A DNA stretch of 38,907 bases from Burkholderiales bacterium (GTDB taxonomy: Bacteria; Pseudomonadota; Gammaproteobacteria; Burkholderiales; JACQAP01). Both the position numbers and the translations under genes were made by a program. This document shows, one piece after another, positions 1 through 31,994 of this stretch. The notes beneath the pieces were generated by a model. The model was not told the DNA's origin and searched no databases. It saw nothing but the letters and a program-made list of their open reading frames with translations. Each line of letters starts with the position of its first letter. Position 1 is the stretch's first letter. The stretch is taken from positions 1-38,907 of the forward strand of contig JBOIFZ010000124.1 in the NCBI GenBank assembly GCA_050741735.1, written 5' to 3'.

Positions 1-185
1 GAAGCCGATTGGACGGTCTCGGTAACGCTGGTACGGCACGCCGAGGCCGCCAGAATCGCCTCGGACATCTTGGCGCGGGCCGTATAGTCCTGGTACGCCG
101 GCAGCGCGACCGCCGCCAGAATACCGATGATCGCGACCACGATCATCAGTTCGATAAGGGTAAAACCCTTTTGTAAGGCCTTCAT
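1..185 (-). CDS. pilA: Type IVa pilin (major pilin, PilA/PilE-like), N-terminal part; the gene runs off the window edge
   Basis: Reverse-strand translation from the ATG at 185-183 gives [54 protein letters not shown]... This is a short leader ending in Gly, followed by FTLIELMIV with Glu at +5, the type IV prepilin signature. An AAGGAG SD lies 6 nt upstream. Confidence 0.9.
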
Positions 186-248
186 GGATCACTCCTTGAT
201 GGTTGATTAAAGAAACACACCTGGATTCCGTGTGTTCTACCTCACTAG

Positions 249-264
249 CGCAATCCCCGTGCCA
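249..264 (-). promoter_or_regulatory. Sigma-54 (RpoN) -24/-12 promoter for the pilin gene
   Basis: The minus strand reads TGGCAC-GGGGA-TTGCG, matching the TGGCAC-N5-TTGC consensus. It lies about 65 nt upstream of the pilin ATG. RpoN/PilR-dependent pilin promoters are well established in Pseudomonas, Neisseria and Myxococcus. Confidence 0.75.
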
Positions 265-472
265 ACCTGCTTCGGACGCTGCCAGTAACGCCCTCTTGGT
301 TTGTCGCTATCCCCATAAACGTTTGAAAAACAGCCTCTTGCAAAGCCATCCTGCGACCACGACTTAACCTTTAACAAGCCGTCGCCGGCACCCAATCAGT
401 ACCTCCTGCGGCCAGTCAACACGCATCCGGCGACACGCAATCCGGGCACCCGGCAGTAACTGACGCAGTTCG

Positions 473-2110
<1,638 letters not shown>

Positions 2111-2156
2111 GGAAGGGTGATCTCGCGTAAAGACTGCCCGGTGCGGTCGCGATCGC

Positions 2157-4547
2157 CTACTTGATGCAGACTGCCCGGACCTGATGCAATTCGGTAATGC
2201 CCTGCAGGACCTTCTCGATGCCGTCCTGTTTCAGCGTCCGCATGCCTTCGGCAAGCGCGGTGGCAACGATTTCCGCTACCTGCGAGTGCTCCTGGATGTG
2301 CTTCTTGAGCGAATCGGTGCCCACCAGCAGCTCGTGCAGGCCTACCCGGCCCTTGTAGCCGGTGCCGCCGCAGACGTCGCATCCAACCGGCGTGTACAAC
2401 TTGAATTGTCCCTTTTCGTCGGCAAACTGCTTGGCCCAATCGCGGTAAATTGATTCGTACGCGGCCTTCGGGTCGCGCTTCCATTGCACGGTGTTCTTCA
2501 GCTCGACGCAGTACTCCTCGAGAATCCCCTTGAGTTCTTCCTGCGTAGCCACGTGAGGTGTCTTGCACTTGGAGCACAGCCGCTTGGCCAGGCGTTGCGC
2601 CAGTACCCCAAGCAATGCGTCGGCAAAATTGAACGGGTCCATGCCCAAGTCGAGCAGGCGGACAATCGACTCCGGCGCGCTGTTGGTATGCAGCGTGGTG
2701 AACACCAGGTGGCCGGTGAGCGAAGCCTCGATGCCGATCGAGGTGGTCTCCTTGTCGCGCATTTCACCCACCATGATGATGTCGGGATCGGCGCGCAAAA
2801 ACGCCCTCATCGCGACCGCGAAAGTCAGCCCGGCCTTGACGTTCATCTGTACCTGGCGCAGGCCCTTCTGGGTGATTTCGACCGGGTCCTCGGCGGTCCA
2901 GATCTTGGTCTCCGGCGTGTTCAGATAACCGAGCGCCGAATGCAGCGTGGTGGTCTTGCCGGAACCGGTCGGGCCGCACACGAAGAACAGTCCGTAAGGC
3001 ATGCTGACCACGTCCTTCAACGTGCCGAGGTTGCGCTCCGACAGTCCCAGTTTGTCGAGCGGGATCGGCTCGCCCCCGCCGAGAATACGCATCACGATGT
3101 CCTCGACGCCGCCCGCAGACGGAATGGTCGCCACCCGCAGTTCGATATCGAGCGGGCCGAATTTCTTGAACTTAATCTTGCCGTCCTGGGGTTTGCGTTT
3201 TTCCGAGATGTCGAGATCGCACATGATCTTCAGGCGCGCGGCAATGGCATTGCGGTAGCTCGACGGCACCGAAATATACGGTTGCAGCGTGCCGTCCTTG
3301 CGGAAGCGGACTTCGGTCTTGCCCTTTCCCGGATACGGCTCGACGTGAATGTCGGAAGCCCCCTGGTGATAGGCGTCCACGATGATCTTGTTTACCAGTT
3401 TCACCAGTTCGTTGTCCTGCGCCAGGGATACGTCGTCGGTTCCGCCTCCGGCCCCACCCTCGTCGTCGCCCTCGTCGTCCATGGTGGACAGCAGTTCGGT
3501 GATGTTCGAGGTGTCACCCACGGCATCCGCGCCGAAGAACTGATCCAGCGTGGCGCTGAATTCGCGCCGGGTGCACACTTTGAAAACCACCTTGTGCTTG
3601 GGAAAGATGTTGGCCACCACTTTCGAGGCGCGCACTTTTTCCGGGTCGGTGGTAAGCACGATCAGGCCTTCCCTCACGTCTTCGATCGGCACCCAGGAGC
3701 TGCTCTCGACGAAATCGCGCTTCAGGTTCCTGAGCAGGTCCATGGGCTTGCCCCGGTCCTGCTTGAACGACTCGTAGGGCACGCGGAAGAACTGGGACAG
3801 CGCTTCGCCGATCGCCGGCGCTTTGACCTGGAACTCGTCGGACAGAACATCCTCGATGTCCCGGTTCTTGCGCCTGGCGGAACGGGTCGCGAGTTCCATT
3901 TCTTCTGCGGAAAGCACCGCATTGGTCACCAGATGGTCGTACTTCCCGCGCAGCATCGCCGTCGGGCGGCTGCGTTGCTTCAGCGCAATGGCAAGGGTTT
4001 CACCGAGATGCGTCGCGCCTTCCTCCGCGACGGCGGAAAAAGGCTGGCCGCTCTTGGCATTGATCACCTGCACCACGCCGATCAGCTCGCCTCCAGGGCC
4101 ATCCGTTATCGGCACCACCAGCATTTGCTTGGTGCGGTATCCGGTGCGGCGGTCCACTTCCTTGAGGAACTTGAGGTCAGCGTTGTGGCCGCGCAGCTCA
4201 TTGTCGTCGTAGACATCGCGGATGCTGATGAGCCTCTTCGACAACGCCACGAAGCCGGCGATGCTCTGCTCGTTGATCGGCAGCTTCAGGTCCTTGAAAG
4301 AAGACAAGCCGGTCTTCACCTTGGAGATGATCGACGTCCTGTCGTCGGAAACCACGTAGATGGTGAGCCGGTCGGCCTCGAACACGGCGCAGATATCCTG
4401 CGACAGCTCCAGCATGATCTCGTCGATATTGCTGGTCGCATGAATCTTGTTCGTGACCACCTGGAGCCTTTTCTGGAACTCCAGTTTATGGCTCATTTCG
4501 GCCAGGTTATGGCCGGTTTGCGGCTTGGTCTCAAAGACTGTGCTCAT
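2157..4547 (-). CDS. GspE/PilB/MshE-family secretion/pilus assembly ATPase with an N-terminal GAF domain
   Basis: 796-aa ORF. The GAF core (VDRRTGYRTKQMLVVPITDGPGGELIGVVQVINAKSG) lies in roughly aa 30-190. It is followed by a GspE_N-like segment, Walker A GPTGSGKTTT, the GEMRD Asp box, and the tetracysteine CSKC...CDVCGGTGYKGR typical of assembly ATPases. An AAGGAAGGA SD precedes the ATG. Confidence 0.9.
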   Translation of the reverse strand: MSTVFETKPQTGHNLAEMSHKLEFQKRLQVVTNKIHATSNIDEIMLELSQDICAVFEADRLTIYVVSDDRTSIISKVKTGLSSFKDLKLPINEQSIAGFVALSKRLISIRDVYDDNELRGHNADLKFLKEVDRRTGYRTKQMLVVPITDGPGGELIGVVQVINAKSGQPFSAVAEEGATHLGETLAIALKQRSRPTAMLRGKYDHLVTNAVLSAEEMELATRSARRKNRDIEDVLSDEFQVKAPAIGEALSQFFRVPYESFKQDRGKPMDLLRNLKRDFVESSSWVPIEDVREGLIVLTTDPEKVRASKVVANIFPKHKVVFKVCTRREFSATLDQFFGADAVGDTSNITELLSTMDDEGDDEGGAGGGTDDVSLAQDNELVKLVNKIIVDAYHQGASDIHVEPYPGKGKTEVRFRKDGTLQPYISVPSSYRNAIAARLKIMCDLDISEKRKPQDGKIKFKKFGPLDIELRVATIPSAGGVEDIVMRILGGGEPIPLDKLGLSERNLGTLKDVVSMPYGLFFVCGPTGSGKTTTLHSALGYLNTPETKIWTAEDPVEITQKGLRQVQMNVKAGLTFAVAMRAFLRADPDIIMVGEMRDKETTSIGIEASLTGHLVFTTLHTNSAPESIVRLLDLGMDPFNFADALLGVLAQRLAKRLCSKCKTPHVATQEELKGILEEYCVELKNTVQWKRDPKAAYESIYRDWAKQFADEKGQFKLYTPVGCDVCGGTGYKGRVGLHELLVGTDSLKKHIQEHSQVAEIVATALAEGMRTLKQDGIEKVLQGITELHQVRAVCIK

Positions 4548-4643
4548 GGCGTCCTTCCTTTTTCCGTTTGCCGGTTGCCACTCCGGGATACTACCCCAGC
4601 AACTTCCGGGCCGCTTACCCGCGACTTGCCCGGCAGCGGGGCA

Positions 4644-5408
4644 CTAAAATTTGAAAACCTGGCCGTTGGACAACATGCGGGGGTTGTAGCGTTCCGCATA
4701 CTCCCCGACTTCCTGCATCGTCACCGTGCCGGCGCCGGGCTTCAGGTGCGTGATATAGACCCGCGCCGGGCGCTTGAGTTTGGCCAGTTCCTCCGCCAGC
4801 ATGCTCGGACACAGATGTTTCGACGTGATCGCCAGCTCCTTCTCCTCGTTCGGGAAGGCCGTCTCGATGATCAGATAGCGCAGGTTCTCGATCTTGTTGA
4901 CTTCTGCCCAAAGCGCGTCGTTGGTGGTGGTGTCGCCCGTGAAAACCAGACTTGCCTCGCCGCTGTCGAGGTGGAACCCGACCGCGGGGACCACGTGATT
5001 GGCCGGCAACACGGTAATCCGGCGTCCGCCGAGATTAACGCATTCGCCCACTGCAAACGTGGTGTATTTCATGTACGGCGCGGACTTGCTCGGAATTTCG
5101 GCGAAATCCGGCCATACCTTCCAGTTGAAAATGTGGTCCTTCAGGATTTTGTGCGTCGGCTCGGTGCAGTGCACGTTGATCGGCGTATCGCGCATCGGGC
5201 CGATGGTGTCCACCAGGAACGGCAGCGAGGTGATGTGATCGAGATGCGAGTGGGTGATGAACACGTGGTCCACCTTCAGCAGCTCGGTGAGGCTCAGATC
5301 CCCGACCCCGGTTCCGGCGTCGATCAGCACGTCGTAGTCGAGCAGCATCGTGGTGGTGCGCAGGTTTCCACCGATTCCGCCACTGCACCCGAGTACCCTG
5401 ATCAGCAT
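4644..5408 (-). CDS. MBL-fold hydrolase resembling class II 3',5'-cyclic-nucleotide phosphodiesterase (CpdP/PDE1-like)
   Basis: 254-aa ORF. The N-terminus is MLIRVLGCSGG...LLDYDVLIDAGTG and the core is THSHLDHITSL (the HxHLDH core of the class II PDE signature; the rest of the signature matches only partly). The ATG lies 2 nt after the cyclase stop codon. Confidence 0.7.
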   Translation of the reverse strand: MLIRVLGCSGGIGGNLRTTTMLLDYDVLIDAGTGVGDLSLTELLKVDHVFITHSHLDHITSLPFLVDTIGPMRDTPINVHCTEPTHKILKDHIFNWKVWPDFAEIPSKSAPYMKYTTFAVGECVNLGGRRITVLPANHVVPAVGFHLDSGEASLVFTGDTTTNDALWAEVNKIENLRYLIIETAFPNEEKELAITSKHLCPSMLAEELAKLKRPARVYITHLKPGAGTVTMQEVGEYAERYNPRMLSNGQVFKF

Positions 5409-5410
5409 CG

Positions 5411-7639
5411 CTATTTAGTCTCGAATTTCCAGGAGCCGTCCCAGCCTTGCTCCGGAGGATTGCTGCGGAATAAGGCAATGCGCCCGAGGAAGAGCTTATA
5501 AAGTCCGCTCGCTGCGTTGCGCTTTTGCAGGTTGAGCAACTGCAATTCTGCCATATCCCAGTCGCGCGCCCGGTAAAGCTTGAGCGCCTGCCCCCAAAGC
5601 TTCAATTCGTCCTGCACCGCCTTGTCGACTTCCACCGCCAGGCCGATCGGTTCGAAAATGGTCACCGGCTTGTCCTTGCCTTTCACCTTCACCTGATCGA
5701 GCTCGCGAAAGACCACGTCGGGAACCTCCGCGCGGGTGCCTTCGCCGACGATCATGTTGACCCCGTATTCCTTGGTCTTGCCTTCCAGGCGCGAAGCCAA
5801 ATTCACCGCATCGCCCATCACGGTGTAGGCCAGACGGATTTCCGAGCCCATGTTGCCAACGCTCATGCGGCCACTGTTCACGCCCACGCCAATGTGGATT
5901 GGGGGCCAGCCCATTTCCTGGAAGTGCGGCTGCAGCGCGTCGAGGACTTTGTGCATCTCCAGACCCGCGAGCACGGCGCTGCGCGCATGCTGTGGATCGT
6001 CGAGCGGAGCCCCCCAGAATGCCATGATGCAATCCCCCATGTACTTGTCGATGGTGCCGAGATGCTTGTAGATCACCCGGGTGAGCGGCGTGAGGAATTC
6101 GTTCATCAGCTTGGAGAGCTGCTTCGGGTCGAGGCCTTCGGAAATGGTGGTGAATCCGCGCACGTCGGTGAACAACACCGACAACTCGCGACTTTCGCCT
6201 TCCATCGAGAAGGACTCGGGATCCCTGCTCATTTCGTCCACCAGCTCGGGCGGTACATACTGGCCGAACAGGCCGGTGAGCTGGCGCTTGGCGCGCGATT
6301 CGACGAAGAAGCCGTAGGACATGTTGAGCGCAAACAGCGTTGCGATAATCAACAGGCCCGAGGCCAGGGGCAACACCAGGTTGCCCTCGGTCCACACCAG
6401 CACGTTGCTGGCGAACACGGCCGCCAGCACCACCACCGTGAGCATAGTGGCGCGTAGCGGATTCACCAGAGGCAGCACCAGCGCCATCGCCAGACCCGAA
6501 AACAACAGCAGCACCACCTCGGCGCCAAGCACATACGGCGGCTTCTGCTTGATCTTGCCGTCGAGCATGCCGGTGATCAAATTGGCGTGAATTTCCACTC
6601 CGGGGTACACGCCTGCCACCGGAGTCGCCCTGAGGTCGAACAGCCCCGGCGTGGTCGTACCCACCAGGACTATCTTGTTCTTCAGATCGTCGATCGGTGC
6701 CGTGCCATGCAACACATCGGTCCCTGAAACATACTTGAAACTGCCCTGGCGGCCGCGGTAGGGAACCAGTGCCGCCACCTGGACATCCACCGGAATGCGT
6801 ACCGAGCCGATGTCGATCCACTCCAGTCCGGGATAGTTCCTGGTGAAGAACTTTTCCTCCGGGAAACCGGGAACGACCGGCGGCGATTCCAGCCCGAGGC
6901 GCACCATCGCCATCGATAGCGATTCGTAGTACGCGCCCCCGTACTCCGCCAGCATCGGCACCCGCCTGGTCACACCGTCTTCGTCGGGCAAGGGGTTGAA
7001 GTGACCGCCGCTTGCCGCGGCCTCCTGGAATTCCGCGAGGTTGGCGCCGTAACCGATCCAGCGGGTAAAGTCGATATTCTTGCCCTTGAAGGTGCCGGCC
7101 GGCAGGCCCGGCTTGGGCAACGCGCCCGTGGCGCGCCCTTTTCCGTCTTCCGACACGACATCGGAAAAGTAATAGCCCAGCACAACTGCGCGATTCCTCA
7201 GCTTCTCGGCGAACGCGCGGTCGTATTCGAGTTGCGGACCGATCTCCTTGAGCACCGCCTGGTACTGCGCGTTGCCCCGGAGCTGGTTCTCGCCGAGCTG
7301 CCTGAGCACCCCCAGGCCGGAACTTTCGTCGCGTTCCGCGAACACCACGTCGAAGCCGACGATGCCCACCTTGTAGTGATCGAACAGCTGGTCGAGCATC
7401 AGCGCGAGCTTGTCGCGGCGCCACGGCCAGCGGCCCTCCGCGGCGAGGCTTTTCTCGTCGATGTCGACGATGACCAGGCGTGGATCGATGCTATTGGGCA
7501 TCGTCAGGCGCAGGCGCGCGTCGTAAATGATGTTTTCGAAGCGATTGACGAAGGGGATTTGGTAGTAACGGGCGGCGTGGCCGACAAAAATCAGAATCAC
7601 CACCAGTCCGAGCGCAATGCGCACCAGATGCTTCTTCAA
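5411..7639 (-). CDS. CHASE2 sensor domain-containing class III (IIIb) adenylate cyclase
   Basis: 742-aa ORF. The N-terminal TM plus CHASE2 region contains VIVDIDEKSLAAEGRWPWRRD, followed by multiple TM helices. The cyclase domain has FTDVRGFTT, GTIDKYMGDCIMAFWGAP and AYTVMGDAVNLASRLEG. The only start candidate is a TTG at 7639, preceded by the SD AAGGGAGA. Confidence 0.88.
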   Translation of the reverse strand: MKKHLVRIALGLVVILIFVGHAARYYQIPFVNRFENIIYDARLRLTMPNSIDPRLVIVDIDEKSLAAEGRWPWRRDKLALMLDQLFDHYKVGIVGFDVVFAERDESSGLGVLRQLGENQLRGNAQYQAVLKEIGPQLEYDRAFAEKLRNRAVVLGYYFSDVVSEDGKGRATGALPKPGLPAGTFKGKNIDFTRWIGYGANLAEFQEAAASGGHFNPLPDEDGVTRRVPMLAEYGGAYYESLSMAMVRLGLESPPVVPGFPEEKFFTRNYPGLEWIDIGSVRIPVDVQVAALVPYRGRQGSFKYVSGTDVLHGTAPIDDLKNKIVLVGTTTPGLFDLRATPVAGVYPGVEIHANLITGMLDGKIKQKPPYVLGAEVVLLLFSGLAMALVLPLVNPLRATMLTVVVLAAVFASNVLVWTEGNLVLPLASGLLIIATLFALNMSYGFFVESRAKRQLTGLFGQYVPPELVDEMSRDPESFSMEGESRELSVLFTDVRGFTTISEGLDPKQLSKLMNEFLTPLTRVIYKHLGTIDKYMGDCIMAFWGAPLDDPQHARSAVLAGLEMHKVLDALQPHFQEMGWPPIHIGVGVNSGRMSVGNMGSEIRLAYTVMGDAVNLASRLEGKTKEYGVNMIVGEGTRAEVPDVVFRELDQVKVKGKDKPVTIFEPIGLAVEVDKAVQDELKLWGQALKLYRARDWDMAELQLLNLQKRNAASGLYKLFLGRIALFRSNPPEQGWDGSWKFETK

Positions 7640-7939
7640 GCTGTCTCCCTTGATTCGCAGCGCGTCGGCTCAACGCCGCATCTGCGGAGCCCGAGCGCGC
7701 AGGCGGAGCAGGCCGGTGGATGCGACCCGGAGTCGCTCGCATTGCACGCCCCTCATGTGCATTCGATGGGCCGCCTACGCGGTCATATCCCCGGAGGGGC
7801 CCCTGTTCCGCGCTCCGGCGTCCCTAGCAGTCATCCGCACCCGGCGCAACGCGCGTCGTCGGACTTATGCAGAGATTCCCTAGTTATCGATGTCTCCTCT
7901 GGCGCGGGTAGTTAAAGTCCGAGCGGGCAGCGGTTCGGC

Positions 7940-8722
7940 TCAGGATTTCAGGAAGAACTCCATCTTTACCCCGGCCAGCTCGATGATGTCGTGATCGTTG
8001 AGCTGGTGGGCCTGGGCATCGAGCGCCTTGCCGTTGACCACCGGGAAGTTGGTGCCTTCCACGTGGGTAATGTAGTAGCCATGTGGCCGCTTGGCGATGA
8101 CCGCCACCTGCACCCCGGGCTTGCCCAGCGTGGTCAGCGGCTTGAGCAGCGGCAGTTCCTTGCCGGAATTGGGCCCGGAGAGAATTTGGATGGTGCCTTG
8201 TCCCCCTGGCATTGCCGTGGCGGCAGGCGCGGCCGCGGCCTGCGACGGAGCCGGCTTGTGCGCTTCCGTCGCCGCCGGCGCGGCCTGGGGATTGATGACG
8301 GTGTCGCTCAGTTTCGCGGCCTGGGGGACGTGGTCCTGGGTATCGGTCGGCGCCTTTGTTTCCGCCTTGGATACTGCGACGGGAGCGCGCAGCACCATGG
8401 TCTTCTCGAACTCGACCTGGCTCATGCTGGCCGGCGCTTCGTTGACGTACTTGAGCTTGTATTTGCCGATTTCGATGATGTCGTTGTTCTGAAGGAAGTG
8501 CTTCTTCACCGGCTGGCCGTTGACCAGCGTACCGTTGGTGCTGCCAAGATCCTCGAGAAAGGAATCCTTGAGGATGGTCATGATGATGGCGTGCTCTCCG
8601 CTGACAGCCAGATTGTCGATCTGAACGTCGTTGTGCGGTTTGCGGCCGATGGTGGATCGCTCCTTGGTGAGGGTGAACTCCTTGATCACCTGGCCATCGA
8701 GACTGAGTATCAACTTCGCCAT
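7940..8722 (-). CDS. FHA domain protein (canonical N-terminal FHA, Ala/Pro-rich linker, degenerate C-terminal FHA-like domain)
   Basis: 260-aa ORF. The N-terminal region STIGRKPHNDVQIDNLAVSGEHAII...GSTNGTLVNG carries the GR...SxxH...NGT FHA signature. The C-terminal domain (TLGKPGVQVAVIAKRPHGYYITHVEGTNFPVVNGKAL) has the FHA fold pattern but lacks the Arg/Ser/His triad. An AAGAGGAAG SD is present. Confidence 0.85.
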   Translation of the reverse strand: MAKLILSLDGQVIKEFTLTKERSTIGRKPHNDVQIDNLAVSGEHAIIMTILKDSFLEDLGSTNGTLVNGQPVKKHFLQNNDIIEIGKYKLKYVNEAPASMSQVEFEKTMVLRAPVAVSKAETKAPTDTQDHVPQAAKLSDTVINPQAAPAATEAHKPAPSQAAAAPAATAMPGGQGTIQILSGPNSGKELPLLKPLTTLGKPGVQVAVIAKRPHGYYITHVEGTNFPVVNGKALDAQAHQLNDHDIIELAGVKMEFFLKS

Positions 8723-8734
8723 ATCTGCTTCCTC

Positions 8735-9559
8735 TTATTTGAACCACGAAAGGAACTTCGCCCACAGGCCTTCGTCAGCCGGGAAGTCCTTCTTCACCCT
8801 GATCAGCACCACGGAGACATTATCACGCCCGCCGTTGTCATTCGCCATCTGTACCAGTTGATCGGCCGCGAGCGGGAGGTTGCTGCCGATCGCCGCCAGG
8901 GTCATTGCGATGTCCTCGTCGTCGACCATGTCATTGAGTCCATCGGAGCACAGCAGATAGATGTCGCCGGGCTCGGCCGGATAAGTACGGATCTCCGCCT
9001 CGACTTCCGGCTCGATGCCCAACGCCCTCGTGACCAGGTTCTTGTTCTGCGAGCGCTTGGCGGCCTCCTTGGTGAGCAGGCCGCTGTCGATTTGTTCCTG
9101 CAGCAGCGAATGGTCGCGGGTGATCTGCTGCAGATTGTCCCCGCGAAAGCGGTAACAGCGGGAATCGCCGATGTGGGCAATCGTTATCTGGTTGTTGCAC
9201 AACAATGTCACCACCAGCGTGGTCCCCATGCCCGCGTACTGCGGCTGGCTGTTGGCCGACTGGAAAATCGAGGTGTTGGCCCTGGCGATGATGTCCCGAA
9301 GCAGGCCGGTCGCCAGCGGAGAACCGGAACTTTCGTCCAGTTCGTGTGGCGCATGCCGGGCCAGCGCTTCGCGGGTCTCGCTTGAAATCAGCGCGGTGGC
9401 GATGCCGCTGGCGACTTCGCCGGCATTGTAGCCACCCATGCCGTCGGCCAGCACCGCCAGCCCGATCTGCGCGTCGGTAGCAGTGCTGTCCTCGTTGTGG
9501 GAGCGCACCATCCCGGTGTGGGTGGCTTTCGCCATCTCCAGGGAGGGGGTCAGATTCAT
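8735..9559 (-). CDS. PP2C-family Ser/Thr protein phosphatase (Stp-like)
   Basis: Motifs are HTGMVRSHNEDS, LADGMGGYNAGEVAS, LLCSDGL and DNGGRDNVSVV. I prefer the ATG at 9559. The ORF track starts at a TTG at 9568. Confidence 0.88.
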   Translation of the reverse strand: MNLTPSLEMAKATHTGMVRSHNEDSTATDAQIGLAVLADGMGGYNAGEVASGIATALISSETREALARHAPHELDESSGSPLATGLLRDIIARANTSIFQSANSQPQYAGMGTTLVVTLLCNNQITIAHIGDSRCYRFRGDNLQQITRDHSLLQEQIDSGLLTKEAAKRSQNKNLVTRALGIEPEVEAEIRTYPAEPGDIYLLCSDGLNDMVDDEDIAMTLAAIGSNLPLAADQLVQMANDNGGRDNVSVVLIRVKKDFPADEGLWAKFLSWFK

Positions 9560-9572
9560 TTCTTCCAATCCA

Positions 9573-12119
9573 TCACAGGGTCACGTCCACGGTTCCGAAC
9601 TGCGCCGCGCATTGGCGCAGCGCCCGCGCCATTTCTTCCCCGCTCTTAAAGCGCGCGGCCACGTCTTTGGCGAGCGCCTTGCTGATGATCGCCACCAGAC
9701 ACGCTGGAAGCGTCGGGTTTATGCCGAGTATGTCGGCAGGGGGCTCGTTGGCGATCTTGAACATCAACTGGGTCATCGAATCGCCCTGGAACGGCAAACT
9801 GCCGCAGGCAAGCTGATACAGCGTCACGCCCAGCGAAAACAGATCGGAATGGCCGTCGATCTTGTCGCCGGCCAGTTGTTCCGGCGACATGTACGAGGGG
9901 GTGCCCAGCACCATGCCGGTCTTGGTCTTGGACGAATCGGTGATGCGCGCGATGCCGAAGTCGGTGACCTTGACCGAATCGACCTGCGCGTCATACATGA
10001 TGTTGGCCGGCTTGATATCGCGATGAACCACGTTCTGCTGGTGTGCGTAGGCCAGGGCCTCGGCGACGCGCGCGACCACTGATAGCGTTTTCGGCAACGG
10101 CAGCAGGTTGCCCGGTTTGGTTTGCGGCACCAGGTCCTTGCCCTTGAGGAATTCCATGGCGATGTAGGCCAGGTCGTGCTCTTCGCCGGCGTCGTAGATG
10201 GTGACGATATTGGGATGGTTGAGCCGGCCGGCAGTCTCGGCTTCGCGGAAGAAGCGTTGCTTCACCTCTTCCAGCTCGTCGGCTTCGAACTCCTGGGACA
10301 GCGCCATGGTCTTGATCGCGACGATGCGGCCGATCTTCGGGTCCTTGCCCAGATAGACAACGCCCATCGCGCCCTTTCCGAGTTCCTTTTCCACCTGATA
10401 ACGGCCGAGCATCGGCTTTTCCACGCCGCCGCCCTCGAGGACCAGCGTGCTGGCGTTGGTGCGCCCGCCGCCGCTGCCAAGGATTACGGTCTCGGACATC
10501 TGCTTGGCGCGATTGAGCTTCTTATTCAGGTCGCGGAACTTCGGATTGTAGGTGGCCATGTTCTCGTACACCGCCTGGGCCTTGTTGAACTGGCGTTTGC
10601 GCTCGAAATCGAGCGCAAGGTTGTACAAGTTGTCCATCAGCTGGTCGTCGAGCGGCACCTTCTTGAACTTGTCGAAGGCCATGTCGAGCTGGCCCTGCCC
10701 CTGGAAAGCCAGGCCCAGCGTGCGGTTGGATTCCGCCGAATCGAGGTCCGACCTGGCCTTGCCGCGCTCGGTGGAGAGAAAGCGCTTGGTGGTGAGCAGG
10801 ACGTGGCCGATCACCAGCAGCACCGCCGAGGCCATCAGCTGGATCCACATCAGCTGGCCCGCCATCAGCACGAAATGCGCGGCAAACAGCGCCGCAAGCA
10901 GCACCGCGCTCACGGTGAAACCCATGCCTGCCTTGAGCCGCGGCAGCAGCAGAATCAGATACAACGCGACCAGCAGGAATGCCGCCTTTTCGACCCAGAT
11001 ACCCCAGGCGGGCGCGACAAAGAAATCCTCCTCGAGAATGCTGGACACCGAGTGCGCCAGAGTCACAACCGGTGCCATTCCAGGCGAAATCGGCGTCACC
11101 TGGTAGGTCCCGATGCCGGCCGCGGTGGCGCCAATCAACACGACTTTGTCCCGGTATTTCTCCGCCGGGAACTTTCCCGAGATCACGTCGTAAAAGGAAT
11201 CCAGCGGAAATGCCGGTTTGCCGTCCCTGTCCTTGTAGAAATAGGTGTACATCTGCAGATAGGGATCGGTATTGATCGTCAGGTTCCCCAACTTCACCCC
11301 TTCGCCCAGCCGCAGTTCGACGTCTGCCGGTCCCAGATTCAGGCTTGTGGCGACGAGAACCAGCGAAAACGACGGGAAATACTGATCGTAGTAGCGCACC
11401 ACCAATGGTTCGGTGCGCGTGCTGCCGTCTACATCCGGAAGCGCGTTAAGGTGGCCGACCGCTGCGGCACCGGCTGCGATTTCTTCGAGCGGCGCACTCG
11501 CCTGCAGCGTCGGCGCCGGGAAAATGTTCCTGTCGCCCGCGCCGATGCGGTCGCTCACTTTGGTGATCTGATTCTTCAGAATGTAATCGGCGAGCGGATG
11601 GTCGGGATTGCCGCGCGGTTCGCCTATGGTAAAAAGCGTCGGCAACGCCACATTGCCGGCCTGCGCCACCGCGGCGGCAAGCTTGCGGTCGCTGTTGAGC
11701 GCATCGTCCGCCTCAGCCAGCACCGACGCGAAATCGGCAAGGTTCTGCTGCTGCGCGGGCGGGAGCGCCTGGTAGAGCTCCGCGAGTTTGTGAATATAGA
11801 CGAGCCCGGGATCCACCTGCGGCTCGAAAAAAAAGGAGGCATAGCCAACTACCTTCGCTCCGGCCTGTTTGAGATTGCCGATCATCTTCGCGTGGATCTC
11901 ACGCGGCCAAGGCCATCGCCCGATGTTGGCGATGCTTCGATCGTCGATGGCGATGACCGCAACGCGCTGCGACGGGGCGTGGCTGGAGGCCCGCACGCCG
12001 AGGTCGTAGGCCTGACGTTCGAGACTTTGAATGAGATCGCTGCCGGACGCGACCAACAAAACGACGGCAATGACCAATCCGAGGAACCAATCGGCTTTCC
12101 AGAAAGCCGTCTTCTTCAT
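9573..12119 (-). CDS. CHASE2 sensor domain-containing Hanks-type Ser/Thr protein kinase
   Basis: The N-terminal CHASE2 region (VIAIDDRSIANIGRWPWPRE) is followed by a TM block and a TPR-like segment. The C-terminal kinase has GKGAMGVVYLG, AIK, HRDIKPANIM, DFGIAR and GTPSYMSPE. I take the ATG at 12119 as the start; an upstream in-frame GTG at 12128 is also possible. Confidence 0.9.
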   Translation of the reverse strand: MKKTAFWKADWFLGLVIAVVLLVASGSDLIQSLERQAYDLGVRASSHAPSQRVAVIAIDDRSIANIGRWPWPREIHAKMIGNLKQAGAKVVGYASFFFEPQVDPGLVYIHKLAELYQALPPAQQQNLADFASVLAEADDALNSDRKLAAAVAQAGNVALPTLFTIGEPRGNPDHPLADYILKNQITKVSDRIGAGDRNIFPAPTLQASAPLEEIAAGAAAVGHLNALPDVDGSTRTEPLVVRYYDQYFPSFSLVLVATSLNLGPADVELRLGEGVKLGNLTINTDPYLQMYTYFYKDRDGKPAFPLDSFYDVISGKFPAEKYRDKVVLIGATAAGIGTYQVTPISPGMAPVVTLAHSVSSILEEDFFVAPAWGIWVEKAAFLLVALYLILLLPRLKAGMGFTVSAVLLAALFAAHFVLMAGQLMWIQLMASAVLLVIGHVLLTTKRFLSTERGKARSDLDSAESNRTLGLAFQGQGQLDMAFDKFKKVPLDDQLMDNLYNLALDFERKRQFNKAQAVYENMATYNPKFRDLNKKLNRAKQMSETVILGSGGGRTNASTLVLEGGGVEKPMLGRYQVEKELGKGAMGVVYLGKDPKIGRIVAIKTMALSQEFEADELEEVKQRFFREAETAGRLNHPNIVTIYDAGEEHDLAYIAMEFLKGKDLVPQTKPGNLLPLPKTLSVVARVAEALAYAHQQNVVHRDIKPANIMYDAQVDSVKVTDFGIARITDSSKTKTGMVLGTPSYMSPEQLAGDKIDGHSDLFSLGVTLYQLACGSLPFQGDSMTQLMFKIANEPPADILGINPTLPACLVAIISKALAKDVAARFKSGEEMARALRQCAAQFGTVDVTL

Positions 12120-12306
12120 GCCACCCACCCTGTTGGATGCCTGAAGGCTTTGATTTCTAATTAGTTAAACGCTAGAGCTAGAGATTTTACGATATTCCCG
12201 TCAAAAGTATATGATTTTTTTCAATACTAATCTTCCAGGGAAGGCCTCGACGCGAGCGTCTCAAGACCAACCTGGGGCGGCAGGCCGGGCATCTGGCGAG
12301 ACCACG

Positions 12307-12489
12307 TCACATCCCCTCGGCGATGATTACGCTTCTTATCGCAGTGCGCTGGCGGATCTTTTTTGCGGCCGCGTACTGAGGCGCGCCCCACCACGCGCGC
12401 GCCTTCTCTACGTTGTCGAACTCGAGTACCACCATACGCTCGGGATGCCACTCGCCTTCCAGTACATCGGTCCCGCCGCCGCGTGCCGG
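12307..12489 (-). pseudogene. DUF1330-family gene remnant (C-terminal ~55 codons only)
   Basis: The frame reads ...ARGGGTDVLEGEWHPERMVVLEFDNVEKARAWWGAPQYAAAKKIRQRTAIRSVIIAEGM*. This matches the C-terminal half of DUF1330 proteins (LEG.W...R.VV.EF.S.E.A..WY.SPEY). There is no matching N-terminal half and no start codon. Confidence 0.6.
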
Positions 12490-12652
12490 GAAACGCGAAA
12501 GGGACGAGCAGGAAGGCCGGTTGCGGGTAATAAGCGATCGCGATGGCGGTGAACGCCACCGCATGCAAAGTGTGTCCGGAAGGAAAACTGAACTGATCGA
12601 GCGGGCGGGCGTTGCAGGTGATCGCCCGGTTCACTAGGTAGGGTCTGGGCCG
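12485..12652 (-). pseudogene. PAP2-family phosphatase remnant (central fragment only)
   Basis: The frame reads RPRPYLVNRAITCNARPLDQFSFPSGHTLHAVAFTAIAIAYYPQPAFLLVPFAF. It carries the PAP2 C1 end (RP) and the C2 motif (PSGH), but the C3 motif (SRxxxxxHxxxD) is absent. An in-frame stop lies immediately 5' (12653-12655). The 3' end runs, in a different frame, into the DUF1330 remnant. Confidence 0.6.
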
Positions 12653-12706
12653 CTAGGTCTTGGCCTTCAACCACCGGTACAGCATCGTGCCGGCTACGAC
12701 GCGGGA

Positions 12707-15144: not shown

Positions 15145-16500
15145 TCAACCGCCTGTCGCCGCGGCAAGCGCCGCGACGTAGGCATCGAGATCGGCTTCGG
15201 TCTTGGTCTCGGTGGCACAGACCAGCAGCGCTGCCCCGAGTTCCGGGTAATCGCGGGAAACATCGTGGCCGCCAAGGATACCGCGGGAGCGCATATTCAC
15301 GAGCACCCCATCGGCCGGCCGCGGCAGCCGGATCACCGCCTCGTGGAAAACCGGCGCGCTGAAAACCCGCTGCACGCCGGGGATACGTGTCACCTTCTCC
15401 AGCAGCAACCGGGAATTGGCATGCGATTGCGCAGCCACGTTCTTCAGCCCCTGGGCGCCGAGCATCGCCAGGTAGATCGTCGCGGCTGTGACCGCCAGGC
15501 CCTGATTGGTGCAGATGTTCGACGTGGCTTTGGAGCGGCGGATATGCTGTTCGCGCGCCTGCAGCGTCAGGGTGTATCCGCGCCGTCCTTCGACATCGAC
15601 CGTAGCGCCGACGATGCGGCCGGGCATCTGCCGCACCAGTGCCTGCTTGCACGCCATGAATCCGAAGTAGGGTCCGCCGTTGGCGAGCGGCACGCCCAGC
15701 GGCTGGCCTTCTCCGACCGCGATGTCGGCGCCGTGGCTGCCCCACTCGCCGGGAGATTTCAGCAACGCCAGAGCAGTCGGGTTGACGCAGGCAACGGTCA
15801 ATGCGCCGCGCGCGTGCGCCCAGTCGGTCAAGGCATCCACCGTTTCGAGCACACCGAAGAAGTTCGGCTGCGCAACCACCAGCGCCGCGAAGTCCGCCTT
15901 GCCCAGTGACTCCAGCGTTTCAATGGACACGCGGCCATCCGTCGCGGAGTATGGCACTTCGACCAGTTCGATGCGCTGATTGGAAACGATGCTGGCGACG
16001 ACGCGCCGGTAGGCCGGATTGACGCCGGCGGGAATCAGCACGCGCCGCGCCGACTTGTGCAGGCGCACCGCCATCAGCACCGCCTCGGCAAGCGCGGAAG
16101 CGCCGTCGTAGAGGCTGGCGTTGGCGGCATCGAGCCCGGTGAGCGACGCCATCATGCTCTGGTACTCGTAGAGCAATTGCAGCGTGCCCTGGCTCGCCTC
16201 CGCCTGATACGGCGTATACGCCGAATAAAACTCCCCTCGGGTGGCAATCTGCCAGACCGCGGCGGGAATGTGATGTTCATAGGCACCGGCACCGATGAAG
16301 TTGAGCATCGGCCGGTCCTGGCGCGCTCGTTCATGCATCAGGCGCGTGACCTGCATTTCGTTCATGCCTACAGGGATGCCCGCCAGCCCGTCGCTCTTGA
16401 GGCTTTGTGGAATCTCGTCGAACAGTTGGTCGATTGTCGAAACGCCAACCGCCGCGCACATGGCGCGGATGTCTTCCTCGGTGTGGGGAATGAAGGGCAT
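15145..16500 (-). CDS. gcvPA: Glycine dehydrogenase (decarboxylating) subunit 1 (P-protein alpha)
   Basis: 451-aa ORF beginning [14 protein letters not shown]... and containing [22 protein letters not shown], which is typical of GcvPA. Confidence 0.9.
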
Positions 16501-16509
16501 GTCAGTTCC

Positions 16510-16594
16510 GTGACGAGTGACGAGAATTAGGAGGGTCTTCTTCCGTTTCGGTTCCTTGGTTTTATCGCCTCACGCCTCACGCCTCTCGCCTCAC
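16510..16594. repeat. Intergenic element with tandem heptamer arms (2x GTGACGA ... 4x CGCCTCA/T)
   Basis: GTGACGAGTGACGA lies at 16510-16523. CGCCTCA CGCCTCA CGCCTCT CGCCTCA lies at 16567-16594. The two arms are imperfect reverse complements (GTGACGA versus TGAGGCG). The element fills the gcvH-gcvPA spacer. Confidence 0.6.
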
Positions 16595-16596
16595 CT

Positions 16597-16986
16597 TCAA
16601 TGCGCTTCCGCCTCGACCAGCTTCTGATAACCCGCCGCGTCCAGCAACGCTTCCAGTTCGGCCGGGTTGCTGGGCTTGAGACGGAACATCCAGGCGTCGT
16701 ACGCGCCCTCATTGATTTTCTCCGGCGCGGTTTCGAGATCGCCGTTTACCGCCACGACCTCCCCGGAAATCGGTGAGTAGATGTCGGAGGCGGCTTTCAC
16801 CGATTCGACCACCCCGCATTCCTCGCCTTTCTTAAGCTTGCGGCCCAGCGCCGGATTTTCCACGAACACCAGGTCGCCCAGAAGGTCCTGTGCGTGATGC
16901 GTAATGCCGACCGCCACGGTCCCGTCGGCCTCAGGCCGCGCCCATTCGTGGCTGTCGGTGTATTTCAGATTTGCAGGAATCGACAT
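16597..16986 (-). CDS. gcvH: Glycine cleavage system H protein
   Basis: 129-aa [14 protein letters not shown] and the lipoyl-lysine context [20 protein letters not shown] are present. Confidence 0.93.
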
Positions 16987-17001
16987 GAATGCTCCAGATT
17001 T

Positions 17002-18105
17002 TCAACGGATCGAAGAAGAAAGGCCGGCGACCAGGCTGCGTCCGTTCCGCACGAAGGGATATTTTACCGTTCTAGCCGGCAGCCACTTGTCGCGGATCTT
17101 CACTTTCGCCGATTCCCCGGCTTGCACGCCGATCGGCATACGCGCCAGCGCGATCGAAGTATCCAGCGTGGGCGAGAAGCTGCCGCTGGTAATCTCTCCG
17201 CGACCATTGCGCGTCTCGACTTCCTGATGTGCGCGCAGCACCCCGCGCTCGAGCAGCACCAGGCCAAGCATCTGCGCACGCGGTGGCGCGGCAAGCAGTG
17301 CCGCCTTGCCGACAAAGTCGCGCGGGTTTTCCAGGTCTACAGTCCATTTCAGGCCGCACTCCAGCGGGGTCACGGTTTCATCCATGTCCTGGCCGTAAAG
17401 GTTCATCCCCGCCTCCAGGCGCAGCGTATCGCGCGCGCCCAGGCCCGCCGGGCCCACGCCGGCATCGAGCAGCGCCCGCCACAGGCGTGGCGCTTCAGCG
17501 GCCGGCAGCATGATCTCGAACCCGTCTTCGCCGGTGTAGCCGGTGCGGCCGAAGAAAAACGCGCCCCACTCCGCGGCAAAGAATGGTCCAAGCGCGTCGG
17601 TCGCCGGTTTCGATTGCGGCAGCGCCTGCCACACTTTCGCGCGTGCCCGCGGCCCCTGCACCGCGATCATCGCCAGATCCCGCCGCGGCGTGATCGTCAC
17701 GGCGGCCGCGGCGCGCGCCCTTTGCGAAGACATCCAAGCAAGGTCCTTGTCCGCGGTAGCGGCGTTGACCACCACGCGAAAGCGTCGCGGGTCCAGAAAG
17801 TACACGATCAGATCGTCGAGAATGCCGCCCGAATCGTTGAGCATGCATGAGTAAAGCGCTTTGCCCGGGATCTGCAGACGATCCACGTTGTTGGCGAGCA
17901 GCCGCATCAGGAACGTGCGGGCGCCTTCGCCATCCACGTCCACCGCCAGCATGTGCGAGACGTCGAACATGCCGGCGTCCTTGCGCACCCTGTGGTGCTC
18001 GTCGATCTGCGAGCCGTAGTGCAGCGGCATCTCCCAGCCGCCGAAGTCCACCAGCCTGGCGTTGAGCGCGCGATGGGCCGCGTTGAGCGGAGTCTGCTTC
18101 AGCAT
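17002..18105 (-). CDS. gcvT: Glycine cleavage system aminomethyltransferase T protein
   Basis: From the ATG at 18105 the product begins [41 protein letters not shown], a classic GcvT N-terminus. The track ORF has 16 extra upstream codons that overlap the preceding gene. Confidence 0.9.
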
Positions 18106-18115
18106 CGCGCGCTGC

Positions 18116-18925
18116 TCAGGGATACAACAGGTAAAGACGGTAACCGGCAGCACGCAGCTCGCCGGTGTCCAGAAACAGCCGTATCGGCAGCTCTGCCCCC
18201 GCTTTCAGTCCATCGGCTGCGTCAGTCCACTGCAGGTACTCCGCCGGAAGAAAAATGCGGCGCGCGATGGTCTGATCCTGCGAGTTGGTCAGCGTCAGCT
18301 CGAACGCCGGATAGTCCTGCTCCACCGGCGCACGATTGCGCACCGCGACCATCAGCTCGATTTCGCTGGGGCGGGCCGAATCCGGCGCCTTCAAATCCGA
18401 AGCCTCGATATGCAAGAAACGCGACAGCCGCGGCAGCGCCACGGTGCAGTCCAACCATTCACACGCCCGCTCGTAGTACTTCCGGGACTGCGGAACCAGC
18501 ACCATCAGCTCGGTGCGAAACGCGTACGCCGCCTGAAGGGCGAGCAGGGCGAGCAGCAGCAGCGACAGGCTCACCCAAAGGCTGGTGCGGCGCGGCGCTT
18601 CCGGCATCCTGAATTCCCATTCATACAGGCTCGCGGCCGGATCCGGCCGCGACGCAGCCGCCGGCCTTACCTTCGGCCGCACCGGAATTCGCGTTGGCGC
18701 TGATTTTTCGAGGGGCGGCGCTACCGGCGGCAAATCGGATTGCGCTGGGGACGGCGTTTCGCGTTCCGGCGCGGCCGGCTGAGGCTCTTGGGCAGTGAGC
18801 GTCGCGAAGGCATCGAACACCTGCCTGCATTGGCCGCAGCGCACCTGGCCACTGGAAGCTTGCAGTTGCTGGGTGGTTACCCGGAAAGCAGTCCCACAGT
18901 GTAGGCAACGCGTGTACAGGTTCAT
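18116..18925 (-). CDS. Zinc-ribbon (MJ0042-type) plus DUF3426 family membrane protein
   Basis: From the ATG at 18925 the product begins [39 protein letters not shown] (CxxC...CxxC). A Pro/Ala-rich linker, one TM helix and a DUF3426-like C-terminal domain follow. Its conserved position is after prmA. Confidence 0.75.
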
Positions 18926-28868: not shown

Positions 28869-30077
28869 TCAGAGCACCGGCTGCCTGCGTCCGCCGCCGT
28901 AGTGCTGCAACTGGCCGAGCGTGACCTCGAGCGCCTTCTGGTAGTGGGCGGCAGCCTGTTCGAGCTTGCCTTCGCGCTCCAGCAGGCGCGCCAGCTCCAG
29001 GTGCACCGAATACGTGGGCTCGATCGACAGGCTTGCCTCGAGATAACTGCGGGCCTTGCCCCACAAACCCTGGTGCGCGCAAAGCCGGCCCAGCGTGAGC
29101 AACAGCACCGCATCGCGCGGATGCGCCTGAAGCCACTTCTCGGCACGTTCCAGTTGCTGCCGGACGTCTTCCCCCAGGCATTCGGAATACAGCGCCAGGA
29201 GGCCCTGGTCCCAGATCCGCTCGACGCCGTCCTCGACGATACGATGCGCCTCCGCACACGCACCAAGATCGACGAAGCACCGTGCCGCCGCCGCGGCGAT
29301 GCGCGGCTCATGCCGGTCCTGCACCGGCAGCTTGTCCCAGTATTCGCGTAGCGCCTTGCCATCCAGCGTCGTGAGCTTTAGGTTCTCGATGATCGCGTGG
29401 CGGCGCAGTTGCGAGACCACCGGCCGTTCGAACACCTTGCGCTTTTCCAGTTGCGGGATCAGCGCCAGCACGCGGTCCCAGTTCTTTGCCATCTGCTGCG
29501 CGCGCAGCTCCAGCCGCAAAGCGGCCGTGTGGCTCTCCGGCAACCGCTTCAGCACATCGAGCGCGTCGTGGTAGCGGCGTTCGTCCAGCAGCATTTCTGC
29601 CTGCGCGATCAATCGCATGCTGTCTTCGACGGGATCGTGGCCGGCGGCCTTGGCCAGATAATCGTCGCGCGTGGAAAACGCGCGCATGCCGTGCGCGGCG
29701 CGCGCCGCCAAAATGGCGGAAAGGGCCGGCGACTCACCCGCCTTGAGCGCCGCAGCGGCCGCCTTCTCGGCCTTGCCGAAGCGGCCTTCGAAGAAATTGA
29801 CCAGGGCCTCGTTGAAAGCGGCGCGCGCCCGGTTTTCGTTGCGGCGCTTGAGGTAGGCCCGCACCCGACCCGGCATGGCGATCGAAATCATGATCGCGCG
29901 CATCACCAGATACGCGACCACGACGGCCACTACTGCGATGAGAATCGCCAGATTGAGCGAAAGCTCGACGCGCCATGGCGGCAGCACCAGCAGTACGTAG
30001 CCGTTGTTGTAGCGCGCCGCCAGCACCAGTCCGACGGCGGCGGCAAAAAGTCCGATTACCCACAACAGACCCCGCAT
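28869..30077 (-). CDS. hemY: HemY-like heme biosynthesis-associated TPR membrane protein
   Basis: 402-aa ORF with two N-terminal TM helices followed by TPR-like repeats. It sits downstream of hemX in the canonical hemCDXY order. Confidence 0.75.
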   Translation of the reverse strand: MRGLLWVIGLFAAAVGLVLAARYNNGYVLLVLPPWRVELSLNLAILIAVVAVVVAYLVMRAIMISIAMPGRVRAYLKRRNENRARAAFNEALVNFFEGRFGKAEKAAAAALKAGESPALSAILAARAAHGMRAFSTRDDYLAKAAGHDPVEDSMRLIAQAEMLLDERRYHDALDVLKRLPESHTAALRLELRAQQMAKNWDRVLALIPQLEKRKVFERPVVSQLRRHAIIENLKLTTLDGKALREYWDKLPVQDRHEPRIAAAAARCFVDLGACAEAHRIVEDGVERIWDQGLLALYSECLGEDVRQQLERAEKWLQAHPRDAVLLLTLGRLCAHQGLWGKARSYLEASLSIEPTYSVHLELARLLEREGKLEQAAAHYQKALEVTLGQLQHYGGGRRQPVL

Positions 30078-30111
30078 CAGTCTGCCCCCTGCATCGGATA
30101 GCGAGTCATCC

Positions 30112-31164: not shown

Positions 31165-31185
31165 ATTTCCCGGAAAAAAAAACGG

Positions 31186-31989: not shown

Positions 31990-31994
31990 GCGTG

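Follow-up and report, generated by a model that had tools for sequence, protein, structure and literature searches.

A conserved betaproteobacterial gene cassette in which cyclic AMP may connect envelope sensing with the activity of type IV pili

Organization of the locus

We analyzed a stretch of DNA of 38,907 nt from a Burkholderiales bacterium (assembly GCA_050741735.1, contig JBOIFZ010000124.1, positions 1 to 38,907), hereafter called the window, and focused on a cassette of seven genes followed by a type IV pilin gene. According to the open reading frame (ORF) calls, the minus strand carries all of them. In the order of transcription, they are predicted to encode a Ser/Thr kinase with a CHASE2 sensor, a PP2C phosphatase, a forkhead-associated (FHA) protein, an adenylyl cyclase also endowed with CHASE2, a cyclic-nucleotide phosphodiesterase (PDE), a PilB-like ATPase fused to a GAF domain, a GAF-HD-GYP protein and, behind a sigma-54-type promoter box, the pilin (Table 1). 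An earlier note on this DNA had described eight same-strand genes plus the pilin; it was right about the strand, but the true count is seven plus the pilin. On the other hand, the gaps that it gave (2-96 nt, one of 300 nt and about 290 nt to the pilin) agree with the spacers measured here, namely 4, 12, 300, 2, 96 and 46 nt between successive genes and then 288 nt to the pilin. Its domain calls were also confirmed by the hidden Markov model check that it had proposed, since each Pfam domain that it named scores above the gathering cut-off.

The spacing suggests three tight units, i.e. kinase-PP2C-FHA, cyclase-PDE and ATPase-HD-GYP, followed by the pilin gene with its own predicted sigma-54 promoter. 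A scan of the whole window against Rfam at gathering score returned no family, hence no riboswitch or small RNA that could account for the spacers, and scans for sigma-70 promoters and terminators performed no better than chance level.

Table 1. Features of the cassette and of the gene inserted in related cassettes. Positions are those of the window, except where the number of a related locus (L) is given.
Feature	Position	Strand	Evidence
CHASE2 - transmembrane - TPR - Hanks-type Ser/Thr kinase (CHASE2-TPR-Pkinase), 851 aa	9573..12128	-	Pfam CHASE2 1.4e-51, Pkinase 2e-54
PP2C Ser/Thr phosphatase, 277 aa	8735..9568	-	NCBIfam Stp1_PP2C_phos
FHA protein, 260 aa	7940..8722	-	Pfam FHA 2.7e-22
Insertion of ~186 nt in the FHA-to-cyclase spacer	7692..7877	-	spacer comparison with relatives
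CHASE2 - transmembrane - predicted class IIIb adenylyl cyclase, 742 aa	5411..7639	-	Pfam CHASE2 1.4e-56, Guanylate_cyc 9e-21
Putative metallo-β-lactamase (MBL)-fold, class-II-like cyclic-nucleotide PDE, 254 aa	4644..5408	-	Pfam PDEase_II, Lactamase_B_2
GAF - degenerate MshEN - PilB-like T2SSE ATPase, 796 aa	2157..4547	-	Pfam T2SSE 2.2e-115, MshEN, GAF
GAF-HD-GYP phosphodiesterase, 545 aa	473..2110	-	Pfam HD_5 8.6e-43, GAF 3.7e-13
Sigma-54-type promoter box TGGCAC-N5-TTGC	251..266	-	read from sequence
Type IVa major prepilin gene, 5' part, start at 184, cut by the window end	1..184	-	translation
cNMP_binding-Rhodanese gene of relatives	L069:8540-9607; L085:8919-10001; L055, L057, L059, L064, L065, L072, L074, L075, L079, L080; L070 partial

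Conservation and variation of the cassette

When one genome per species was scanned with the GAF-MshEN region of the ATPase, more than 535 genomes were found to contain a relative. Our analysis is based on the best 80 loci, which display 63-98% identity, all belong to Betaproteobacteria and come mostly from uncultured organisms. The order kinase-PP2C-FHA-cyclase-PDE is kept in 39 of the 50 loci with enough upstream sequence, and the HD-GYP gene directly follows the ATPase gene in at least 52 of 58. The median spacers across loci (4, 17, 115, 2, 96 and 37 nt) can be read beside those of the window. Because the same order is observed in dozens of species-level genomes, the adjacency of these genes is not due to chance, and the synteny on which the earlier note had made its proposal depend is thus verified.

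One could still assume that several independent modules have remained adjacent by descent in a single bacterial lineage and form no single circuit, the kinase-PP2C-FHA unit especially serving an unrelated target. The spacers of about 115 nt between FHA and cyclase and of about 96 nt between PDE and ATPase could indeed hold separate promoters, the kinase and/or the cyclase are missing in 5 of the 50 loci, and the genes on the upstream side (dgkA, gcvP) keep their order in close relatives too. Moreover, one Nitrosomonadaceae genome, whose flanks also differ, has kept only PDE-ATPase-HD-GYP-pilin and is devoid of kinase, PP2C, FHA protein and cyclase. We nevertheless consider this explanation unlikely, since the order is unchanged in cassettes whose proteins share as little as about 55-65% identity, and also where the genes on both sides are different. 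Flanking genes are conserved among close relatives only, and the full cassette occurs among other genes in Azospira oryzae and in a genome of Sulfuricella; in the latter, the FHA and cyclase genes even overlap by 4 nt. In addition, the kinase and the cyclase possess the same rare type of sensor, and a cNMP-binding gene, described below, has been gained inside the cassette without breaking it up.

PDE-ATPase-HD-GYP-pilin is the tightest core of the cassette. The term "hard-wired", chosen in the earlier note, has to be replaced by "modular": besides the Nitrosomonadaceae genome reduced to this core, some genomes lack the PDE (5 of the 50 loci), the cyclase or the kinase, and GAF-ATPases that stand alone exist as well.

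An extra gene is found exactly between the PDE and ATPase genes in 12 of the 80 loci, as well as in Azospira, in cassettes of the Rhodocyclaceae type (Table 1). Its product, of about 355-360 aa, consists of an uncharacterized N-terminal region, a CAP-type cyclic nucleoside monophosphate (cNMP)-binding domain with an intact FGE...PRNATV signature, and a rhodanese domain. We know of no characterized protein built in this way. This inserted CAP-type gene independently marks the cassette as a cyclic-mononucleotide signalling system. The previous claim that no CAP/CRP-type receptor is encoded holds for the cassette of the window lineage but fails in these Rhodocyclaceae relatives. Two further observations concern the surroundings of the cassettes with other neighbours. 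In A. oryzae, a CYTH-CHAD gene and a CRP-type regulator gene (cNMP_binding + HTH_Crp_2) are present just downstream on the opposite strand (L085, 15044-17400), the CRP-type gene being 2.7 kb off, and in Sulfuricella a CYTH-CHAD gene is found upstream of the cassette (L087:1-114).

Concerning the pilin, the gene lies 220-350 nt past the HD-GYP gene in most related loci. In the window, the sigma-54 box TGGCACGGGGATTGCG is positioned about 66 nt upstream of the pilin ATG, and a box of this GG-N10-GC type precedes 48 of 55 pilin genes in related loci, for a background of 0.02 per 200 nt. A full-length pilin orthologue, in locus L006, matches Pfam Pilin and N_methyl; it is followed by an O-antigen-ligase-like gene, similar to the TfpO-type pilin glycosylase gene of Pseudomonas aeruginosa, and then by unrelated genes. 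Variations are also observed: two tandem pilin genes with near-identical N-termini stand 0.2-1.5 kb past the HD-GYP gene in L016, L023, L033, L039 and L040, and large TPR-repeat genes separate HD-GYP from pilin in L053, L054 and L061.

The GAF-fused ATPase and its degenerate MshEN domain

Orthologues of each protein were taken from the 80 related loci and aligned (42-66 per protein), and the catalytic motifs turned out to be invariant for every cassette protein. The ATPase has type IVa PilB and PilF as best solved relatives (~1e-104), ahead of GspE (~1e-91). Its Walker A motif GPTGSGKT, its Walker B/Asp box DPDIIMVGEMRD, its His box TGHLVF.TLHTN and the two CxxC pairs of its tetracysteine zinc motif are invariant in 66 orthologues. 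By its motifs, it is a complete PilB-like motor, even though a canonical PilB identity is not demonstrable.

The c-di-GMP (cyclic diguanosine monophosphate)-binding MshEN domain is made of two tandem 24-residue motifs, RLGxx(L/V/I)(L/V/I)xxG(L/V/I)(L/V/I)xxxxLxxxLxxQ (PMC5013675). We aligned the MshEN region of the ATPase to the GSPII domain of PilF and compared it with this published motif. In motif I, RLG is absent and both Gly and Gln are replaced by Ala; in motif II, Arg is replaced by Asp, the two Gly by Glu and Phe, and Gln by Phe or Tyr. Both motifs are degenerate in 65-66 of the 66 orthologues. Because the Arg, Gly and Gln positions are replaced in both of them, the usual c-di-GMP input through MshEN is very probably absent from this ATPase, and such a loss would fit with a GAF-based input taking over from c-di-GMP.

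In databases, the GAF-ATPase is labelled only generically, for instance as "GspE/PulE family protein". Full-text literature searches returned no description of a GAF-fused PilB/GspE ATPase or of a CHASE2/FHA/PP2C cluster, in agreement with the earlier statement that no GAF-gated ATPase of type IV pili or type II secretion has been characterized. The survey of MshEN domains does not mention GAF (PMC5013675). A search of 1.84 billion cluster representatives with the GAF-MshEN region (E<=1e-30) revealed that GAF-MshEN-T2SSE fusions form a family of 249 clusters at 50% identity in Betaproteobacteria and Desulfobacterales, 23-25 of 27 diverse full-length representatives displaying the three domains. 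The GAF-ATPase genes of Desulfobacterales and of one clade of Betaproteobacteria are isolated: within 10 kb, no gene for a cyclase, a PDE, an HD-GYP protein, a kinase or a pilin is present. In the Desulfobacterales loci L081-L083, a small conserved ORF of 83-88 aa without Pfam match is located upstream (9679-9945 / 9701-9952), and a sigma-54 response regulator is encoded some kb upstream of the GAF-ATPase.

The two GAF domains and their likely ligand

The GAF domains of the ATPase and of the HD-GYP protein were said to be paralogous, and they do share 27% identity (E=3e-13). By sequence, the ATPase GAF matches both cAMP (cyclic AMP)-binding GAFs of Anabaena CyaB2 (1.4e-23), PDE10A GAF-B (4.6e-10) and PDE2A GAF-B (5.7e-9), as well as PmGH, and the HD-GYP GAF matches PDE5A (4.9e-18) and CyaB2 (8.4e-11). 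We then modelled residues 1-340 of the ATPase (predicted local distance difference test score, pLDDT, of 69.5 overall, higher in the GAF part) and searched the model with Foldseek. The top matches include PmGH, PDE5A, PDE2A, CyaB2, PDE10A and cAMP-bound Lcd1 (5w10), with target-normalised TM-scores of 0.66-0.78 to PDE10A GAF-B and Lcd1-cAMP. These comparisons place both GAFs in the cNMP-binding GAF lineage of CyaB2, PDE2/5/10 and Lcd1.

The invariant positions of the ATPase GAF among 66 orthologues are V-D-x-x-T-G-[YF]-R-T, S-[IV]-A-G, T62 and Q160. In the alignment, V131, D132, T135, T139, I96/A97 and T62 correspond to V484, D485, T488, T492, I458/A459 and S424 of PDE2A, which we take to be the cGMP contacts of PDE2A GAF-B (1MC0), a list that reportedly goes back to Martinez and colleagues in 2002. 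At the equivalents of PDE2A F438/D439, the ATPase GAF displays Lys-Thr, and the sequence cannot separate cAMP from cGMP. We infer that cAMP would be the ligand of the two GAFs and that it would have an effect on pili.

A serious competitor, which we regard as doubtful, is that the GAFs do not sense cAMP at all but bind another ligand or serve in dimerisation or as scaffold. The cyclase and the PDE would then act via CRP-type or cNMP_binding-Rhodanese receptors, and the link with pili would be transcriptional only, as is cAMP control of pili in P. aeruginosa through Vfr. Supporting this idea, fusions of the same type occur with no cyclase nearby in Desulfobacterales and in one clade of Betaproteobacteria, the Foldseek matches extend to GAFs with other or unidentified ligands (PtsP, Nlh2, PmGH), and Azospira possesses both a CRP-type gene near the cassette and a CAP-type receptor within it. 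However, both GAFs find their best sequence matches among cAMP- or cGMP-binding GAFs, the positions that map to the PDE2A ligand contacts are invariant, a cAMP-activated GAF-HD-GYP has a precedent in Tlr0485, and the cassette of the window lineage contains no CAP-type receptor.

Cyclase, phosphodiesterase and HD-GYP protein

The catalytic domain of the cyclase has P. aeruginosa CyaB as its best solved relative (5.4e-37), and its alignment to 3r5g is consistent. The two metal-binding Asp, the substrate Lys, the Thr and the transition-state Asn and Arg (D, K, D, T, N, R) are invariant in 62 orthologues, as are the motifs F(T/S)DxRGFT, xDKYxGD and AYTVMGDxVNxxSR that surround them. In the window, the substrate-defining pair is formed by the Lys of IDKYMGD and the Thr of AYTVMG. 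Because of this Lys/Thr pair, in which Thr replaces the Asp of class IIIa, the enzyme is classified by its specificity residues as a class IIIb adenylyl cyclase.

Between the cyclase and PDE genes there are 2 nt, which is also the median distance in 53 loci. The PDE scores 45.4 bits against Pfam PDEase_II (cut-off 23.7) and 31 bits against NCBIfam cyc_nuc_deg_phdiest (cut-off 400), and it matches Lactamase_B_2. The class II metal site HxH(L/M)DH (HxHxDH) is present in 66 of 66 orthologues, and these also match Anti-Pycsar_Apyc1, an MBL cyclic-nucleotide phosphodiesterase family.

The best solved relative of the HD-GYP domain is PmGH (4mcw, 1.4e-29), the next one being the cyclic GMP-AMP (cGAMP)-specific V-cGAP3 (3.9e-21). 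Its motifs HD and HHExxDGxGYP are invariant in 58 orthologues, and HHERMDGKGYP, GGH, NHH and IADIFEAL vary little or not at all. The HD and GYP halves are separated by an insert of some 100 residues (protein residues ~290-397); a comparable insert of GAF-linked HD-GYPs, of unknown function, has been named HdiD (PMC12943098).

In view of these matches, one would also wonder whether the messenger could be a cyclic mononucleotide other than cAMP, such as cGMP, or whether 3'3'-cGAMP could be what HD-GYP hydrolyses. The cyclase domain does match Pycsar cyclase profiles too (PycC, 1.3e-29), the family met by the PDE orthologues is a broad one for cNMPs, and HD-GYP has the motif SPYTxGH in common with V-cGAP3. 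We judge this possibility very unlikely in the light of the invariant Lys and Thr, which are typical of class IIIb adenylyl cyclases, and of the closest solved enzymes, which are adenylyl cyclases; furthermore, PADLOC matched no additional Pycsar-type component, and the best HD-GYP match, PmGH, is a c-di-GMP phosphodiesterase. An anti-phage defence system, of Pycsar type or kinase-based, was also considered and rejected: the kinase and the cyclase were matched by PADLOC only through generic domains, and the PDE, FHA and HD-GYP proteins were not matched at all.

The kinase, PP2C and FHA unit

The kinase displays invariant HRD and DFG motifs in 46 orthologues. The PP2C gene, which begins 4 nt past the kinase gene, encodes a protein scoring 247.6 bits against NCBIfam Stp1_PP2C_phos (cut-off 230), with metal-binding motifs invariant in 57 orthologues. 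The FHA protein is composed of a canonical N-terminal FHA domain, in which GR, SxxH and NG are invariant in 42 orthologues, a Pro/Ala-rich linker and a degenerate C-terminal FHA-like domain. The latter (residues ~185-260) shares 28% identity with the N-terminal domain (E=7e-5) and is devoid of the GR, SxxH and NG residues that bind phospho-threonine.

Proposed mechanism

We propose, with a probability of about 0.5, that in this conserved betaproteobacterial cassette cAMP connects envelope sensing with the activity of type IV pili. An extracytoplasmic cue perceived by CHASE2 would switch the cyclase on and raise cAMP, while the PDE, encoded 2 nt after the cyclase, would keep the signal short or local. 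At the N-terminal GAF of the PilB-like ATPase, cAMP could alter the activity or the recruitment of the hexamer, which would result in a post-translational gating of pilus extension. At the GAF of the HD-GYP protein, it could activate c-di-GMP hydrolysis, as in Tlr0485, and push the cell toward a motile state. Finally, by analogy only with PpkA/PppA/Fha1, the CHASE2 kinase, PP2C and FHA protein might constitute a reversible phospho-threonine checkpoint on the same machinery. A more specific version, in which cAMP from the CHASE2-gated cyclase would bind the ATPase GAF directly and gate extension, the GAF functionally replacing the c-di-GMP site of MshEN, is advanced more tentatively, and we would rather bet against it than for it.

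Several points weigh against this proposal. The main caveat is that the GAF-MshEN-T2SSE fusion by far exceeds the cassette in age and in breadth; because it does so and includes stand-alone members, the GAF ligand need not derive from an adjacent cyclase. In some genomes, the cassette is without the cyclase or the PDE. Among the Foldseek matches there are also GAFs not of the cNMP type, for instance PtsP and NifA-like proteins. Concerning the motor, the ATPase reaches 491.9 bits against the NCBIfam PilB equivalog TIGR02538, below its cut-off of 675.65, and 450.2 bits against the GspE family (cut-off 630.25), PilB being the best-scoring family; neither pilC nor pilD is found within the 38.9-kb window or after the pilin in L006. 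Because of this score and of the lack of pilC/pilD in the window, the ATPase may be an accessory paralogue rather than the principal motor of extension. The PDE assignment, based on a moderate Pfam score, is the weakest of our calls: among solved structures the match is weak (yeast PDE1, E=0.0026), and the single-sequence AlphaFold model has a pLDDT of 40, unusable for a fold search. Lastly, a Tyr occupies in HD-GYP the position of PmGH Glu185, a third-metal ligand, as it does in cGAMP-specific V-cGAP3; because of this Tyr, the substrate could be another cyclic dinucleotide than c-di-GMP.

The inputs known for type IV pilus motors are c-di-GMP, via MshEN, FimX and PilZ, and partner proteins. 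To our knowledge, transcription factors such as Vfr and SyCRP1 are the only route by which cAMP acts on pili. If the more specific version above were true, the cassette ATPase would be the first secretion-superfamily motor under the control of a cyclic mononucleotide, and a PilB gated by a GAF domain would give pili a rapid cAMP input at the post-translational level. It would also provide a function for the large unstudied protein family of 249 clusters. The cassette would represent a compact, genetically linked case of crosstalk between cAMP, c-di-GMP and Ser/Thr phosphorylation, and it would tie two CHASE2 sensors to a scorable phenotype. Since A. oryzae carries it, the system may be open to experiment.

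Spacer insertion and neighbouring genes

The 300-nt spacer between the FHA and cyclase genes of the window is accounted for by an insertion of about 186 nt, relatives devoid of it displaying spacers of 95-124 nt. The motif at the end of the insertion recurs at L001:338-360, in the same spacer, at L003:6821-6843, in the opposite orientation, and at L004:20709-20731, in an unrelated place, which suggests a small mobile repeat resembling a miniature inverted-repeat transposable element or a repetitive extragenic palindromic sequence. No RNA structure signal was detected in the insertion and its spacer (z=+1.3). The insertion is lineage-specific and outside the mechanism, and a regulatory role of the 300-nt spacer was rejected, this spacer being without structure signal, not conserved and explained by the insertion.

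The rest of the window is of housekeeping nature (dgkA, gcv genes, accBC, aroQ, ppc, hemCDXY), and no further pilus gene is found in this remainder of the 38.9-kb window. Directly upstream of hemC-hemD-hemX-hemY (28869-32978), genes at 34123-35957 on the minus strand encode a histidine kinase of LytS type (PF06580) and a Response_reg-LytTR protein. This order is that of algZ(fimS)-algR-hemCD in P. aeruginosa, where the algZ-algR pair controls the minor-pilin operon. The LytS/LytTR pair lies 22 kb away from the cassette and may represent a second regulator related to pili. The 578 nt that separate dgkA from the kinase gene (12129-12706) contain only a short ORF, which matches PAP2 in part (residues 14-42, E=2e-4) and resembles the remnant of a gene. 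No glycine riboswitch was detected at the Rfam gathering score upstream of gcvT-H-P (16500-18300) or elsewhere in the window.

Comparison with known systems

A parallel can be drawn with the Pil-Chp/CyaB/CpdA/Vfr system of P. aeruginosa, which likewise combines type IV pili with a membrane adenylyl cyclase of class IIIb and a phosphodiesterase for cAMP. In that organism, the CyaB sensor is MASE2, the CpdA-type PDE belongs to class III, cAMP is received by Vfr, a transcription factor of the CRP family, and the genes lie apart from one another, whereas here CHASE2 and an MBL/class II-like PDE are found, the candidate receptors are GAFs borne by enzymes and the genes are contiguous.

PpkA/PppA/Fha1, the threonine phosphorylation pathway controlling H1 type VI secretion, resembles the kinase unit, since in both cases a Hanks kinase with an extracytoplasmic sensor, a PP2C and an FHA protein with intact motifs are co-encoded beside a secretion-type nanomachine. 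Unlike it, the cassette contains no type VI gene, its kinase sensor is CHASE2, and the tie of its kinase unit to the pilus ATPase is one of gene order alone.

The HD-GYP protein has the same architecture as Tlr0485, a characterized cAMP-activated GAF-HD-GYP, and as PmGH, with intact HD and GYP motifs. The logic would also be that of Tlr0485, with cAMP switching on c-di-GMP breakdown. The cassette member differs by the insert of about 100 aa, by the Tyr at the position of PmGH Glu185 and by its place in a fixed cassette beside a cyclase, a PDE and a pilus ATPase. In Leptospira Lcd1, a cAMP-dependent GAF-GGDEF diguanylate cyclase, a cAMP-binding GAF also controls a c-di-GMP enzyme, and its cAMP-bound structure 5w10 is among our Foldseek matches; its output, however, is c-di-GMP synthesis, the opposite of hydrolysis by HD-GYP, and it has no link with pilus genes. 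The earlier note had presented crosstalk from cAMP to c-di-GMP coupled to pilus genes as uncharacterized: GAF-based crosstalk in itself is already known from Tlr0485 and Lcd1, but no description of the present cassette was found in the full-text searches.

The closest comparison for the motor is with the c-di-GMP-regulated ATPases MshE of Vibrio cholerae and PilB of Myxococcus xanthus. The ATPase core and the MshEN fold are in common, as is the idea of a nucleotide second messenger bound at the N-terminal region of the motor. Here, in contrast, both c-di-GMP motifs are lost, a cNMP-type GAF stands in front and the proposed messenger is cAMP. Altogether, a cAMP-controlled GAF-HD-GYP, a c-di-GMP enzyme with a cAMP-binding GAF, the transcriptional control of pili by cAMP and motor control by c-di-GMP through MshEN are already known; relative to the literature searched, the GAF-fused PilB-like ATPase and the conserved cassette that encodes it are new.

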